In this document: piece by piece, positions 1-8,311 of the stretch | Position numbering within the stretch: position 1 is the first letter of the stretch | Layout of the letters: the number at the start of each line of letters is the position of its first letter | DNA from: Escherichia coli | GTDB taxonomy: Bacteria > Pseudomonadota > Gammaproteobacteria > Enterobacterales > Enterobacteriaceae | Strand: one strand, 5' to 3' | DNA: 64,000 nt | Assembly: GCF_016026235.1 (NCBI RefSeq) | Contig: NZ_CP065613.1 | Made by a program: the position numbers and the translations under genes | The notes under the pieces: generated by a model | What the model was told of the DNA's origin: nothing | Database searches by the model: none | What the model saw: only the letters and a program-made list of their open reading frames with translations

Positions 1-645
1 GCCAGAGCAAAAAATACTAAAGCTTTCCGTTTCACAAGTCAGGTTAATGACGCTATTAATCCTCCAAAACAACCAAGACAGCCACGAATTAGCGGAAACA
101 GAGCAATCACAGCAGCTTACTCAGCGAATATGAGCAAGCTAAAAGGCTTTGACCCTATTTTGCAGAAATACATCAAATCTCAATTTTACGGGCTATCTGC
201 TAAAGCTGGGGCAATGGATAATTCAAAATTCAATGAGAAGTTAGCTCAGTTAAATGCTTCAGTCAGAGAAGCAATTGCTAAAGCCAGAGGTCATACATCC
301 ACCAGCATTAATGGTGACAGAGCAGCTAGCAGCCTTGATAACCTGTCTTCAGCAGCAGTTAGAGCAGCAGGTGCATTTATCAGCTTTCAGGCTGTACTAT
401 CCGCTTATCAGCGAGTACTGGAAGTTGGTTTACAGCGTGCAAGTGCTGAACGTTCAATTGATTTCGTATTCGGTGACCAAAGTACACAGGTTAAAAAGTT
501 CATTCAGGATTTAACTCAAATTACTGGTATGGACACAACCGAAACACAAGCGCAATTTGCTTCATTTGGTGCATGAAGTGGCACACTGAATTTGGCCACC
601 TGAACAGAGGTGATATGCTCACCTCAGAACAACACAGGTGCTCCA

Positions 646-1814
<1,169 letters not shown>

Positions 1815-3088
1815 CCACTTCAGCAAGTGCAACGACTACGATGGGTCTTGAAGGGTCAGAAGAGCTATTTAAAAACCTTACAGGTTATGCTCGTTTAATG
1901 GGGCGTTCAGATGAGCAGATTCAAAGAGCATTAACCGCAGTGTCACAGATGGCCTCTAAGGGTCAGGTGATGGCTGAGGAGTTGAAGGGGCAATTATCTG
2001 AAGCTTTACCGGGTGCTACTCAGGCATTTGCAAAGGCTTTAGGTCTGACTGAAAAACAGCTTTTCGATAAGATGAAAAATGGTGATGTTAAAGCCTCTGA
2101 TGCACTTCCTAAGTTTGCTAAAGAACTTGGTGCACAGATTAATTCAAGAGGTGGCTGGAAAGCTATTCAGGATTCTACGCAGACGATGTTAGGAAACTTA
2201 AAGAATACTTGGAACAACTCACTAACGGATATTTTCAGAGGTTCTGAAAATGGTCTGCAAGATTTCACAAGAAGCCTAACAACGCTTTTAAACAGTTTAG
2301 GTGGAAGTGGTAAAAGTCTTGGTGAATCTCTTGGTAGCTTGATGAGCGATATGTCGCATGGTGTCGATAGTCTGACTGATATCAGCTACAGGGTGAGAGC
2401 GTTCTTTGATGAGGTGACATTAGCTTACCGTGGTTTAACCGATGAGCAAAAGAAAGTAGTTGATGCTTTAGGTTCTGGCTTGATTAATAGTTTAAAAGTC
2501 TTGGCTGGTGTTATTGCTGTAAATAAAGTTGTTGGTGTAACCAGAAGTATTTACGGGCTTATGACTGCTATCACAAGATTAGGTCAGGTCGCTGATACAA
2601 CAGCGGATAACGTGAATAGAAAGAATGGGAAACCATCAAGATTGAATCTTGGGAATATGCTATTAGCTGGTAGCGCTCTCTATGCAGGTTATGAAAGATT
2701 AGCCTCTACACCTGAACGAATGGAAGCACAAGCTAAATTACCAGAGCTGGCTAAAGAGTCTGGACTTAAACCCGCTTTCACTATGGATGATGTTAAAGGG
2801 TGGTTTAATAGTGCTGCTATGAATCTTGCTAACTTCCAGCATCCAGAATTAAACAACATTAAGCAAGATTCAGCATTAACGAGTGCAGATATCCAAAGCC
2901 TGAGAGATGAAATCTCCGCTTTGAGCAAACGTATTCAGGAGCCTGTGAAAGTTTCACTTGGTGGTGAAGTTGCCATTAAACCAGATGAAACCAGCTTTAT
3001 GACCTTTAGCAGTAATATCTACGACCAATATGCAGAAGCTACGCTATTAAGTTCATCATTCCCAGAAGATGATTAATAATAGTCGAAT

Positions 3089-3143
3089 GCTACGTGAATA
3101 AAGCAAAGTTAATACCCACACCAAAAGTTATTTTTCACGTAGC
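3089..3143. repeat. 10-bp perfect inverted repeat GCTACGTGAA / TTCACGTAGC with a 35-bp spacer
   Basis: Read directly in the intergenic region between the tape-measure gene and the next phage gene. Confidence 0.5.
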
Positions 3144-4111
3144 TCACGCTTAACAGAGAAAATACTTATATATCAAAGGAGAATTTAATGATTTACACTA
3201 ATCAGCTTCGTTACACTGGTAAAGATGGCGTTTACTTCCACTTAAGAGATAATGTAGATGCCTTCTTAACCTTATCAGCAACTGAAAACATGGAATTTGA
3301 TAGCCCTATGATGGTTACCACTCAAAATATGCAATCAGGGCAAACCGTCACAGATAATGTTCAAAGAGCACCCAGAACAATTACTATTAGTGGTGTGGTT
3401 GTAGTTGGTGAATCCGGTAGTATCCTTATCTCAAGAGATAATAAGCTGGTAGAAAACTTCATTGACACTCTTGAAAGCTGGCGTGACCAGAAGCAGATTA
3501 TTTCGGTCATCTGTAAAGACGGAATTAAAATTGATGATTCCATTATTACAAGCTTTAAAGCCTCTAAAGATGTTGGTATTTCAAATGGCCTAAGAATCCA
3601 GCTAACTTTTCAGGAAATTAACTTCAAAGCTATTGTGGGTCAAACTGATATTTCGGCTGCAACTGGAAAGACTGCTACCACAAATGATGGTGGTGCTACC
3701 AGTAAAAAGAATACAGGGAACACTACGACAAGTTTAGGTAATGGTATGTTGATGTGTCAGGAGCTATATAATCGCTCTACGAGTGAACTTACTAATGAGC
3801 AACTTCAAGCCCGTATCAATTGTGGTAAAAGTGTCAAAGTTGAGAATGGAAAAAGCACCTTCTCAGATGCCGCTAATGAGCAAGCTTCAAAGGTGCTTAA
3901 TAATGCTGGTACAGGTAGTGCGTATTTTCATGAAAGGAGATCACTCAATAACTTCCATCGAGATCGGGTAATAACATTTGAACAGATCGCTGAATAACAT
4001 CGATGGAGATCACTTTTGACTCATTTTGTTATTCAGTGATCTCCATCAATGTTATTGGAACTTCACAGGTGTGTTGATCTGTATCTTTTGCCATTCCGGT
4101 AAAGGATACCT

Positions 4112-5512
4112 ATGCCAACAGTTCCAATTTCTATGAGAAAACTTAAAGAAATTCTTAGGCTTAAATACGGTGTTGGACTCAGCCATCGACAAATTGGTCG
4201 TAGTCTTGCAATCTCCCCTTCCGTTGTATCCAGATATGCTAATCGGGCGGCTCAACTTGGCATAAAGCAGTGGCCCTTACCTACAGGATGGGATGATACA
4301 AAACTAAAACATGCGTTCCTTCAGACCCAGGTTAAGATGAAGAAGCACTCTCTGCCTGACTGGGCTACAGTACACTGGGAACTGCGTAATAAATGCGTGA
4401 CGCTGCAGCTACTCTGGGAAGAATACTGTGAGCGTAATCCAGGCGGTTTTTACAGCTATAACCATTACTGCCGGATGTACCGTGAATGGCTCAAAACCAC
4501 TTCACCATCAATGCGTCAGGTACATAAAGCTGGCGAAAAACTTTTCGTTGATTACTGTGGACCTACCGTTGGCGTTACCGACCCTGAGACCGGAGAAATA
4601 AGAACTGCTCAGGTCATCGTAGCTGTTCTCGGGGCATCAAGTTACACATGGGCAGAGGCCACCTGGTCTCAGCAGCTTGAAGACTGGGTGATGAGTCATG
4701 TTCGCTGCTTCCAGTGGTTGGGTGGCGTTCCTGAACTTGTTGTTCCGGACAATCTGAAAAGCGCCACATCCAGGGCATGTAAGTATGATCCTGACGTTAA
4801 CCCTACCTACCAGCAGATGCTTGAGCATTATAATGTCGCAGTTTTGCCTGCGCGGCCACGTAAACCGAAAGATAAAGCCAAAGCTGAAGTTGGCGTTCAG
4901 GTTGTTGAACGCTGGATCATGGCCCGAATCAGGCATGAGATCTTCTACAGCCTTGCATCGCTTAATCAGCGCATTCGGGAGTTGCTGGAAAGACTGAATA
5001 ACAAAATAATGCAGAAGTTGGGTTATTCACGTGCAGAACTCTTCATCCAGCTTGATAAACCCGCACTGAAGCCTCTTCCTGAAGCCAGTTACAGTTACAC
5101 CCTGGTGAAGAAAGTCAGAGTTCATGCCGATTACCACGTGGAAATCGACAAACATTACTACTCGGTTCCATGTTCGCTGTTAGGCCAGCAACTGGAAGCA
5201 TGGATCTCCGGAGAACTGGTAAGACTCTTCAATCAGGGGCAGGAGGTTGCTGTGCACCCGCGCAAGCGTACTTATGGCTACAGTACCCGCAACGAGCACA
5301 TGCCTGAAGCTCATCGACAGCATGCCACCTGGACGCCAGAGCGTCTTCTGGAATGGGCGGGGCACATAGGCAGTGAAACTCATAGTTATGTGCTTCATAT
5401 ACTGAACTCTCGTCCACATCCGGAACAAAGCTATCGCTTCTGCCTTGGACTCCTGAACCTTCATAAAAATACAGTAAAGCCAGACTTAATGCAGCATGTG
5501 CAAGAGCTCTGA
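4112..5512 (+). CDS. istA: IS21-family transposase IstA, apparently frameshifted near its 3' end
   Basis: N-terminal helix-turn-helix-like region MRKLKEILRLKYGVGLSHRQIGRSLAISPSVVSRYANRA and a DDE-type body. The ORF stops at 5512, but the -1 frame is open from 5467 to 5652 and ends 12 nt before istB. Confidence 0.8.
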   Translation: MPTVPISMRKLKEILRLKYGVGLSHRQIGRSLAISPSVVSRYANRAAQLGIKQWPLPTGWDDTKLKHAFLQTQVKMKKHSLPDWATVHWELRNKCVTLQLLWEEYCERNPGGFYSYNHYCRMYREWLKTTSPSMRQVHKAGEKLFVDYCGPTVGVTDPETGEIRTAQVIVAVLGASSYTWAEATWSQQLEDWVMSHVRCFQWLGGVPELVVPDNLKSATSRACKYDPDVNPTYQQMLEHYNVAVLPARPRKPKDKAKAEVGVQVVERWIMARIRHEIFYSLASLNQRIRELLERLNNKIMQKLGYSRAELFIQLDKPALKPLPEASYSYTLVKKVRVHADYHVEIDKHYYSVPCSLLGQQLEAWISGELVRLFNQGQEVAVHPRKRTYGYSTRNEHMPEAHRQHATWTPERLLEWAGHIGSETHSYVLHILNSRPHPEQSYRFCLGLLNLHKNTVKPDLMQHVQEL

Positions 5513-5663
5513 AAACAAAGGTATGGCGTCTGTCAGGTATTAAATCGATCCTGGAAAAAGGTCTGGATAAACAACCTGTTCAGGATCCAAAACCAGATCT
5601 GTTATCCACGATGGAACACGAAAACGTACGCGGCAGTGAGTATTACCACTGATACGGGATCCA

Positions 5664-6413
5664 ATGATGAATCATCTTTACGAACAACTGACCGCACTTA
5701 AACTCACCGGCTTCCGTGATGCGCTTAAAAAGCAACTTGCTCAGCCGGGCACATACCAGGAGCTGGGCTTCGAAGAACGCCTGTCATTACTGACAGCAGA
5801 AGAACTAACCTGCCGTGAAAACAGGAAGGCAGAGCGTCTGATCAAACATGCACGGTTCAGACTTAATGCTGAGTTATCAAAGCTGGATTATCGTAACAAT
5901 AGAGGGCTGGACAGGGCCCTCATCCGTTCACTCAGTCAGGGAAACTGGTTAACCCTGAAACAAAATATTTTACTGACCGGGGCCACCGGCAGCGGTAAAA
6001 CGTTCCTGGCATGTGCACTTGGTCATAATGCCTGCCGACAGGGATACAAGGTCTACTATTATCGCCTTAAAGCGCTGATGGAACAGTGCTATCAGGGGCA
6101 TGCTGATGGAAGATACAGCAAACTTTTGACTAGGCTGAATAATAGCGATCTGCTGCTTCTGGATGACTGGGGGCTGGAACCTCTCTCATCAGAACAGCGT
6201 AGCGACCTGCTGGAAATAGTGGATCTGATGTACCAACGAGGCTCAATCATCGTAGTGAGCCAGTTGCCGGTGGAAAACTGGTACAAAATGATCGGAGACT
6301 CCACACATGCGGATGCCATCCTAGATCGACTGGTTCATGGCAGTATCAAGATTGAACTTAAAGGAGAATCAATGCGGAAAATACAATCTCCGTTGACCGA
6401 AGGAGATCAGTGA
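5664..6413 (+). CDS. istB: IS21-family helper ATPase IstB
   Basis: Walker A motif LLTGATGSGKTFLACALG and DnaC-like layout, located immediately after istA. Confidence 0.9.
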   Translation: MMNHLYEQLTALKLTGFRDALKKQLAQPGTYQELGFEERLSLLTAEELTCRENRKAERLIKHARFRLNAELSKLDYRNNRGLDRALIRSLSQGNWLTLKQNILLTGATGSGKTFLACALGHNACRQGYKVYYYRLKALMEQCYQGHADGRYSKLLTRLNNSDLLLLDDWGLEPLSSEQRSDLLEIVDLMYQRGSIIVVSQLPVENWYKMIGDSTHADAILDRLVHGSIKIELKGESMRKIQSPLTEGDQ

Positions 6414-6560
6414 AGGTAATTTAAAAACGGTTCTGTGAAAGTGACACGAACCGATCTCCATCGATGTTACTCACCGATCTCCTTCACGGTAATACGCAGG
6501 TAGTACTTTGAAGAAGTTTAGTGTGAATCCTAACAAGCGATACTGACGATAGAATCTCAA

Positions 6561-8090
6561 CTATATGATAACCTCATCAACATCTATTAAACCCCTCTCA
6601 GTGACTTCAGAAAGCGACTGTATAGCCTCTGTAACGTCCTCTGAGGGGTTTTCTGTTATTGGTAGGTCAATTACCTTACCGTTGTGAAAAGTTACTTTAC
6701 AGCGACGTTTAGCGGCATCTATAACTATTTCTTTGAGTACGCCCTTGATAAGTAGCTGTGTCTCTACCATCCCTTCCTTTGTTGTCCTGTCAATATCTTT
6801 GAGGCTTCCAGTTGTGATGGCCTTTATCCGCTGTGTTTCCTCTTCGATATCATGATTGAGTTTTGATAGCGCATTCTTCATATCACGTAATTTCTCTGTG
6901 ATAATTGTCATGTCATCGAGTTCAATAGCGAGTTCTGCCATTTTTGAGATTTTACGCTGCAAATCTTCACGCTGTAATTTAAGGCTATCAATAGTGTCAG
7001 TATTTTCAGTTTCAAAACGGTCGCATAATGCGAGCATGTAAAGGATAGTTGCATCCGTTTGCTTACGACTGATAGCCTTTGCACTACACCTGTTAGCTGA
7101 ACGATTAGGACATCTGTACATCCCAAAACGTTTTAAGGCATATCCACCAAGAACAATAGTAGCCCCACACTCAGAACATTTGATGATACCCCTGAACAAG
7201 TTGACTGATAGCGGATTACTTGATACAGAAGCCCTACCATATTGCCCTGTGTTCAGTTGCTGTACTCGATAGAATAGTGACTCACTGATTATTGCGGGGT
7301 AGTAACCCTGAACTTCTTCACGTCCAGCAGGTGTGAAACATCCAATCACAGCACGATTTCTGAGTAGTTTCTTTACAGCAGTATCAGACCATCCCTTTTG
7401 TTTAGGTGTGTATTGATTCAATGACAAGTGGCCTTCATCGTTTAAAGTTCTGGTGATAGCCCAAAAGCTTAAACCCTGTAATCTCAGGTCAAATGCTCGT
7501 TTAACAACTTCCACTTTATCGGGGATGATAGTGAATGTTCGACGGTCATCATTCAGCCTTAACCATGCAGGACAACGCCTAGATACCTTGATACCTTCGG
7601 AGATGAGTTCTTTTTTACGGTTCCATGCAGCTTGGACACGCTCAGACTTCCTCAGACTTTCCTCATGCGCCCGCTGCATTATCAGAATGCTTTTAATCAG
7701 GGATAACGGGTCTTTTAAACTTTCTCGTGTGTAATGTTCACCATCGGACAGGGTGACTACATCTACACCAGCCCTTAAGATACGGCGTAATAGCTCAGAA
7801 GCAATATCAATATCCTGACGTGACAGACGGTCTAAACTCTCGATTAGTAGCGTATCACCAGCTTTAACAAGCCCTTTCTCGATAGCGGTTAGAAAGTCAC
7901 CTAGACCACCTTTCAGGTGCTTACCACTAAAAGCACTTTTCCCCAAATCTTTAAAGCTCAAGGATGAATCCAAGTAAAACTCAGGGTTCTTATCAAGCCA
8001 GTCAGTAACCAGCTTAGATTGTCTGCGTACAGAGTCCCCTTTTAGTTGTCGTTCACTTGAAAATCTGATGTAGCTGATTGCCCGTCTCAT
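6561..8090 (-). CDS. Large serine recombinase (phage integrase type)
   Basis: N-terminal resolvase-like catalytic region (AISYIRFSSERQ), a cysteine-rich zinc-ribbon-like segment (CSECGATIV...YRCPNRSANRCS) and a C-terminal extension. ATG at 8088-8090 is preferred over the TTG at 8096 used by the ORF track. Confidence 0.85.
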   Translation of the reverse strand: MRRAISYIRFSSERQLKGDSVRRQSKLVTDWLDKNPEFYLDSSLSFKDLGKSAFSGKHLKGGLGDFLTAIEKGLVKAGDTLLIESLDRLSRQDIDIASELLRRILRAGVDVVTLSDGEHYTRESLKDPLSLIKSILIMQRAHEESLRKSERVQAAWNRKKELISEGIKVSRRCPAWLRLNDDRRTFTIIPDKVEVVKRAFDLRLQGLSFWAITRTLNDEGHLSLNQYTPKQKGWSDTAVKKLLRNRAVIGCFTPAGREEVQGYYPAIISESLFYRVQQLNTGQYGRASVSSNPLSVNLFRGIIKCSECGATIVLGGYALKRFGMYRCPNRSANRCSAKAISRKQTDATILYMLALCDRFETENTDTIDSLKLQREDLQRKISKMAELAIELDDMTIITEKLRDMKNALSKLNHDIEEETQRIKAITTGSLKDIDRTTKEGMVETQLLIKGVLKEIVIDAAKRRCKVTFHNGKVIDLPITENPSEDVTEAIQSLSEVTERGLIDVDEVII

Positions 8091-8094
8091 ATTC

Positions 8095-8130
8095 AATACC
8101 TAAAATGATGTGTTTAGGAACCCATTATAC
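8095..8130. other. Prophage-chromosome junction (attR-type site) within mdtG
   Basis: mdtG-like codons diverge from the recalled K-12 sequence about 8120-8128 and are followed by phage-derived codons MGS and a stop. Inverted repeat CCTAAA-N8-TTTAGG at 8099-8118. Confidence 0.5.
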
Positions 8131-8311
8131 TGAAGACAATACCGGACCACATATTCAGGGCGGAGTGGCCGGTAACGCCAAGCTGCTCAACGTAGAGGGG
8201 TAAGAAGGGCATTACCAGACTGAAGGCGGCACCGGTAAGAAAACAGCCTAGCCAGGCGACGATCAGGTTTCGTTTCCAGTTTATAGGGGTGTCATTTTCA
8301 CAGGGTGACAT
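8114..8311 (-). pseudogene. mdtG: mdtG (yceE) 5' fragment, about 62 native codons, truncated by prophage insertion
   Basis: Translation [62 protein letters not shown] matches the recalled MdtG N-terminus, then ends MGS-stop instead of continuing into the transporter. Confidence 0.85.

Follow-up and report, generated by a model that had tools for sequence, protein, structure and literature searches.

The stretch of DNA considered here comprises 64,000 nucleotides of Escherichia coli (RefSeq assembly GCF_016026235.1, contig NZ_CP065613.1) and is called the window throughout. Its first 8.1 kb form the right-hand part of a chromosomal island, and beyond about 8.1 kb lies the E. coli chromosome (lpxL-trhO-yceI-yceJ). 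In this part of the island three genes are found, namely a tape-measure gene, which lacks the part before position 1 of the window and contains the insertion sequence (IS) IS911, a gene for a Dit-like 'phage baseplate protein', and a convergent gene for a large serine recombinase. The element of concern, ISEc12 of the IS21 family, lies within the Dit-like gene, and on the evidence given below we are highly confident that it is an ISEc12 copy which was inserted by transposition and which is now most likely decaying and non-autonomous. The features of the element and of the gene it interrupts are as follows.

3188-3918, plus strand: 5' part of the gene for the Dit-like 'phage baseplate protein', up to codon 243 and the beginning of codon 244
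3914-3918, no strand: left copy of the GGTAG target duplication, abutting the IS terminus; GGTAA is present once at this place in related islands without the IS
3919-6498, plus strand: ISEc12 (IS21 family), 2580 bp; reference copies have 2581 bp
3919-4056, plus strand: left end, with terminal TGCGTATT, four repeats spaced by 23 bp that resemble IstA sites, and an inverted copy at 4035-4056
4112-5652, plus strand: istA, frameshifted; Pfam rve and Mu-transpos_C_2, NCBIfam IS21 transposase
5465-5469, plus strand: run of five A (six in reference copies), a 1-bp deletion that frameshifts istA
5667-6413 (open reading frame 5664-6413), plus strand: istB, helper AAA+ ATPase gene, intact; Pfam IstB_IS21 at 2e-67
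6399-6498, plus strand: right end, with repeats at 6450-6462 and 6473-6485 (23 bp apart), an inverted copy at 6399-6413 and terminal AATACGCA
6499-6503, no strand: right copy of the GGTAG target duplication, abutting the IS terminus
6504-6546, plus strand: displaced 3' end of the Dit-like gene, the last 13 codons and the stop

As an insertion sequence ISEc12 is already known and abundant, and its site is new here. Copies annotated as ISEc12 show 99.8% nucleotide identity to 3919-6498 over 100% of the length, and full-length near-identical copies, annotated by RefSeq as 'IS21-like element ISEc12 family', occur in 1771 E. coli records. By the convention of ISfinder, elements sharing more than 95% DNA identity are the same IS; with 99.8% identity to more than 1700 annotated copies the element is therefore ISEc12 itself and not just a member of the same family. 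Among 5426 complete E. coli genomes a match to ISEc12 is present in 1908, with a copy covering at least 80% in 1365, and a genome having any of it has a median of three such places; moreover, it is carried by 608 plasmids from Escherichia, Shigella, Klebsiella and Salmonella. The two genes are equally typical, since IstA reaches 310 bits with the NCBIfam equivalog transpos_IS21 (cut-off 160) and IstB reaches 270 bits with IS21_help_AAA (cut-off 200), and their order, istA followed by istB, is that of the IS21 family, in which istA combines a helix-turn-helix, a DDE transposase and a beta-barrel. The original prediction, made from the letters alone, had described an IS21-family element of 2.58 kb, and with these scores, the length of 2580 bp and the identity to ISEc12 this description holds.

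The boundaries of the element are sharp. In an alignment with the copy on plasmid pAPEC-O1-ColBM (locus L001, 2581 bp), similarity begins at 3919 and ceases at 6498 exactly, and as the reference copy shows no similarity outside these two positions, an extension of the element past them, which would make the GGTAG copies internal, is not what is found. A longer element or a composite structure was considered as well and is ruled out by these alignment boundaries together with flanks that are colinear with IS-free islands.

Immediately outside these termini stand the two GGTAG copies, and we conclude that they are a genuine 5-bp target duplication. In fact 5 bp is the usual length for ISEc12: three other copies have 5-bp duplications at identical termini, which read CCCGA (L001), TCGCT (L002) and ACTAC (L004), and the ISEc12 insertion in tssM of sequence type ST131 is flanked by ACTGC (PMC10711316). 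When the IS and one GGTAG are taken out, the window becomes colinear with related islands: in 244 complete E. coli genomes BLAST aligns the two in one unbroken piece. At the site itself a single GGTAA is seen in strain KSC9, whose aligned part is 94% identical, and in the islands L002 and L004. The duplication that had been claimed for GGTAG is thus supported from the element's side as well as from the side of its IS-free relatives.

The ends have the architecture expected of the family, as had also been proposed from the sequence. Both termini read TGCGTATT in inverted orientation with 8/8 matches, the right end as printed being AATACGCA, so that they are of the 5'-TG...CA-3' type, with TGCGTATT on the left and AATACGCA on the right; when one gap is allowed, the ends can be aligned for some 50 nt and have the blocks TGCGTATT, GTGAAGGAGATC and ATCGATGGAGATCGG in common. 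The window has 10 occurrences of the motif GGAGATC where 4.6 +/- 1.8 are expected, and none of 100 shuffles reached 10; seven of the ten lie within ISEc12, six of these being in the ends, at 3936, 4005 and 4038 (minus strand) on the left and at 6402, 6453 (minus strand) and 6476 (minus strand) on the right. On the left the repeat cores at 3936, 3959, 3982 and 4005 keep a 23-bp register, where the second and third are degenerate (CGAGATC and ACAGATC), and the sequence of this end is the same as in three reference copies; on the right, the inverted copy at 6399-6413 overlaps the istB stop. With six copies of the motif and units in 23-bp register at both ends, the multi-site ends of the IS21 family are recognised.

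Two further observations concern these ends. Between the left terminal repeats and the start of istA there is a 22-nt inverted repeat with 95% complementarity (3993-4014 and 4035-4056, 20 nt apart), which consists of the fourth left repeat unit and its inverted copy; the stretch 3993-4056 might act as a palindromic site for IstA, form a hairpin or block read-through. As for transcription, a scan of 3800-6700 with promoter and terminator consensus sequences gave no interpretable signal: its single weak promoter-like match lies within istB, and no promoter was seen that faces out of the element. By analogy with IS21 we presume that a tandem or circular form could create a junction promoter, for which TTCACG of the right end and TATTTT of the left end are the candidate boxes; the spacer, on the same assumption, would be 17 nt if 3 bp separate the ISEc12 ends.

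The gene at which the element has landed can be put together again. Joining 3188-3918 to 6504-6546 yields an open reading frame of 257 codons that ends in ...LKKFSVNPNKRY, and the annotated homologs have 257 amino acids in L002, L004 and L007 and 255 in strain GN4751; thus the restored frame that had been predicted not only is open but also equals the length of three homologs. The product matches the Dit-like profile (Pfam PF21821) over residues 30-146 with 69 bits against a cut-off of 24 (4.6e-19). The earlier description of a split phage gene is right as far as the interruption itself is concerned, which lies at codon 244, but the break does not fall in the middle of the gene: as it now stands, the frame reads on to 3997 and gives 269 amino acids, of which the last 25 are encoded by the IS and replace the last 13 codons. 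An annotation of the locus should treat the two flanking fragments as a single disrupted pseudogene for the Dit-like 'baseplate' protein, and should give the element the label ISEc12 (IS21 family), its istA being marked as frameshifted.

The state of the copy itself is to be read from istA. Where reference copies have six A, the window has five, and this deletion shifts the frame at codon 453, so that the open reading frame as present (4112-5512) has 466 amino acids against 513 for reference IstA, the last 14 of the 466 being out of frame; the original 61 C-terminal codons can still be read in another frame at 5467-5652. An uninterrupted frame of 513 amino acids, as is expected of an autonomous ISEc12, is not found in this assembly sequence. 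Compared with L001 the copy has four differences, namely the deletion and three C>T changes, all of which are absent from two further copies; one of the C>T changes leads to R89W in IstA and the other two are silent in istB. The ends are unchanged, and the IstB protein is the same as reference WP_001016257 without any difference. From the position of their motifs, the catalytic residues of IstA would be D147 (FVDYCG), D213 (VPDNLK) and E259 (KAKAEVG), which align with VDWK, FDNMK and KGKVERA of IS5376, and the frameshift comes downstream of these candidates and also of the beta-barrel, which spans residues 322-385. It is most likely, though unproven, that this ISEc12 copy is decaying and non-autonomous, and that it would be mobile only if another ISEc12 copy supplies IstA.

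Several points weigh against the reading of a decaying ISEc12 copy brought in by transposition. The name ISEc12 is taken from RefSeq (PGAP), which annotates near-identical copies in this way. Empty sites with more than 95% identity to this variant of the island were not found, and the sequence before insertion is presumed from relatives that are 85-94% identical. The lost residues of IstA, 453-513, lie beyond the DDE and beta-barrel domains, and for this reason a loss of activity is not proven. Finally, a homopolymer, in which the frameshift stands, is the commonest site of sequencing or assembly error.

The last point leads to the alternative that survives best, in which the insertion is the same and the A that is missing at 5465-5469 is an error of sequencing or assembly, so that the copy would be intact and autonomous. 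Besides the position of the deletion in a run of A, this is favoured by the unaltered ends and istB and by the sporadic occurrence of the five-A variant, which is seen in 16 of 1855 IS-carrying E. coli records, from unrelated strains and plasmids, and which fits a recurrent error as well as recurrent slippage. However, the three private C>T changes, one of them non-synonymous and all absent from three other copies, suggest a truly diverging copy, and two IS elements in adjacent genes are consistent with a decaying region. We therefore consider an intact copy to be a possibility of some weight, though on the whole an unlikely one, and keep to a decaying copy as the preferred reading.

A second alternative supposes that the insertion persists because it has a function, and not by neutral decay, either as a chimeric Dit-like protein of 269 amino acids or by antisense read-out into the recombinase gene, by which the island would be locked. 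It is true that 244 of the 257 codons are spared and that the 269-codon frame stays open, that the right end of ISEc12 faces the convergent recombinase gene at a distance of 62 bp, and that relatives of the island repeatedly have IS elements in or near their recombinase gene. But the C-terminal tail that has been lost, L(K/R)(K/R)(F/L)SVNPNKRY, is kept in all four related islands, by which the truncation is more likely to be damaging, and the consensus scan offers no outward promoter for the read-out. Moreover, the exact left junction (as a 28-mer) has no match in the GTDB representative genomes and the junction is in no complete RefSeq E. coli genome, so that there is no sign of a selected and spreading allele. 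Taken together, a retained function seems very improbable. The same absence from complete RefSeq genomes means that the junction could serve as a lineage marker, like ISEc12 in tssM for clade C of ST131.

As to the weakest alternative, that GGTAG is coincidental or internal to a longer element, or that the IS came by homologous recombination and not by transposition, a 5-bp repeat alone is indeed weak evidence, two random 5-mers from the island matching by chance with a probability of about 0.0014, but the exact ends of similarity at 3919 and 6498, the four other ISEc12 copies with different 5-bp duplications and the same termini, and the related islands, which are colinear with the IS-less reconstruction and have one pentamer copy each, leave it hardly any credit. 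A decaying ISEc12 copy that was inserted by transposition thus stays as our reading of the locus.

The remaining features described here belong to the island and to a second insertion sequence in it.

574-1822, plus strand: IS911 (IS3 family) in the tape-measure gene, with a 3-bp duplication GCA at 571-573 and 1823-1825
6561-8096, minus strand: large serine recombinase (integrase), intact; Pfam Resolvase, Recombinase and Zn_ribbon_recom, homolog in PHROG integrase

IS911 shows 99.8-99.9% identity to annotated IS911 copies and a match to an NCBIfam IS3 transposase, and after its removal the tape-measure frame is open from the window start to 3076. With ISEc12 and IS911 together, both of the recognisable tail genes in this copy of the island are lost. 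Independent hits of two IS families in neighbouring prophage genes had been stated earlier; this is correct, the families being IS3 and IS21, though the word prophage is generous for the host.

In fact the host seems to be a compact island. The recombinase gene converges on the Dit-like gene and ends 14 nt downstream of its stop. Intact related islands have 11-12 kb; the one in GN4751 sits in mdtG, whereas that of KSC9 and one of WCHEC020031 sit in yecE. The extents of the islands compared are as follows.

Window: 1-8100
L003: 1-10800
L005: 1-11300
L007: 3800-15400
L002: 1600-13900

Annotated genes in the related islands are those for the large serine recombinase, a resolvase/invertase of 183 amino acids, an HNH endonuclease, several unknowns, the tape-measure protein and the Dit-like hub protein, these last two being the only phage structural genes that can be recognised, and no capsid, terminase or lysis gene is annotated in the intact relatives of 11-12 kb. 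For the ten proteins of the GN4751 island, PHROGs returned only families of HNH endonuclease, tape-measure, Dit-like, integrase and invertase proteins, Pfam added only HNH and resolvase domains, and PADLOC recognised no known defence system. A complete prophage, with modules for capsid, terminase, tail, lysis and replication, was considered as the host and seems less likely, the relatives being islands of about 11 kb without capsid or terminase genes; the window itself shows only the right-hand part of its island, with the tape-measure gene, the Dit-like gene and the serine integrase. The end with the Dit-like gene and the recombinase is matched in 452 of the 5426 complete genomes, and the island has a GC content of 37-42%, compared with about 50% in the adjacent chromosome.

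At the right boundary of the island, beside lpxL, a short N-terminal fragment of mdtG is seen at 8114-8311 (minus strand), and in GN4751 (L005 11256-12314) the rest of the gene is found past the left boundary. As mdtG is split by the island, the attachment site of this serine recombinase lies inside mdtG, and a related recombinase uses yecE in its place.

A relation of the island to lytic phages is also apparent. A virulent Felixounavirus (vB_EcoM-VpaE1, L006 3738-6766) has the genes VpaE1_065 and VpaE1_066 in synteny with the pair of tape-measure and Dit-like genes. The first 520-550 nt or so of the Dit-like gene (window 3188-3740) share 89-93% nucleotide identity with the phage gene, and a homolog of the Dit-like protein is 79% identical to the Felixounavirus protein encoded downstream of the tape-measure gene; for the tape-measure protein, identity to its counterpart is only 28% over the full length. 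These similarities suggest recent recombination between the island and lytic FelixO1-like phages. Going further on such comparisons of sequence, the compact serine-recombinase island, as opposed to a prophage, may be an undescribed satellite of FelixO1-like phages or an interferer with their tail assembly, a conjecture to which we give only a slim chance; in the literature searched, no description of a satellite or island of this kind was found.

Independent IS insertions are also seen in the related islands of other strains. ISEc12 stands at two further positions (L002 10210-12790 and L004 10240-12820), both in the recombinase gene and in the orientation of the window copy. In other strains IS2 lies in the tape-measure gene, and IS100, ISEc52 and IS1A lie within the matched stretch from the recombinase to the chromosome in three strains. 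The island looks like a regional sink for IS elements, for which a preference for AT-rich targets or a lack of selection are candidate causes. If the conjecture on the nature of the island is true, the repeated hits (ISEc12 at three sites, IS911, IS2, IS100, ISEc52 and IS1) would mark its inactivation in many lineages. The finding of ISEc12 by itself matters little beyond annotation, and the nature of the host island is the only lead of wider interest.

In the end we try to understand the insertion by comparison with known systems. Within the same island, IS911 resembles ISEc12 as a DDE-transposase IS that interrupts a tail gene and leaves a short target duplication; in contrast, it is a member of the IS3 family of about 1.25 kb, whose orfA and orfB are joined by programmed frameshifting, which works without a helper ATPase and which duplicates 3 bp. 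Much closer are the reference copies of ISEc12 on pAPEC-O1-ColBM and in tssM of ST131 clade C (EC958), which are 99.8% identical to the window copy from end to end and have in common with it the termini, the order istA-istB, a 5-bp duplication and an identical IstB protein, whereas the window copy differs from them by its 2580 bp instead of 2581, the istA frameshift at codon 453, the three private C>T changes and the new site.

For the mechanism, the structurally characterised IS5376 of Geobacillus stearothermophilus is the most informative relative, since the mechanism of the family is defined by cryo-EM structures of its IstA and IstB. In IS5376 two complete repeats are needed at each end and a tetramer of IstA synapses the ends, while decamers of IstB bend the target DNA and activate strand transfer by way of the IstA beta-barrel (PMC10122671, PMC11208146); its insertions have 5-bp duplications and its end repeats are 23 bp apart (PMC10122671). 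Like ISEc12, it has multi-repeat ends at a spacing of 23 bp, a terminal CA and target duplications of 5 bp, and the proteins are homologous, IstA over the DDE core and the beta-barrel with an alignment to structures 8B4H and 8Q4D (E = 3e-13), IstB with an alignment to 8Q3W and 5BQ5 (E = 2e-27). By this homology of IstA and IstB, ISEc12 would have arrived by the standard pathway of the IS21 family: the DDE transposase IstA would bind the repeated sites in both ends and synapse them, the AAA+ helper IstB would capture and bend the target DNA and activate IstA, and strand transfer with a stagger of 5 bp between the cuts would, after repair, give the GGTAG duplication. The landing place is codon 244 of the 257 codons of the Dit-like gene, which belongs to a small chromosomal island, related to phages, beside lpxL. 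The two elements are nevertheless distant in sequence, and the 513 amino acids of ISEc12 IstA are to be compared with solved IS5376 chains of 373 and 406 residues. Moreover, ISEc12 has four units at the left end as well as inverted copies, while prototypical members of IS21 are drawn with L1/L2 and R1/R2.

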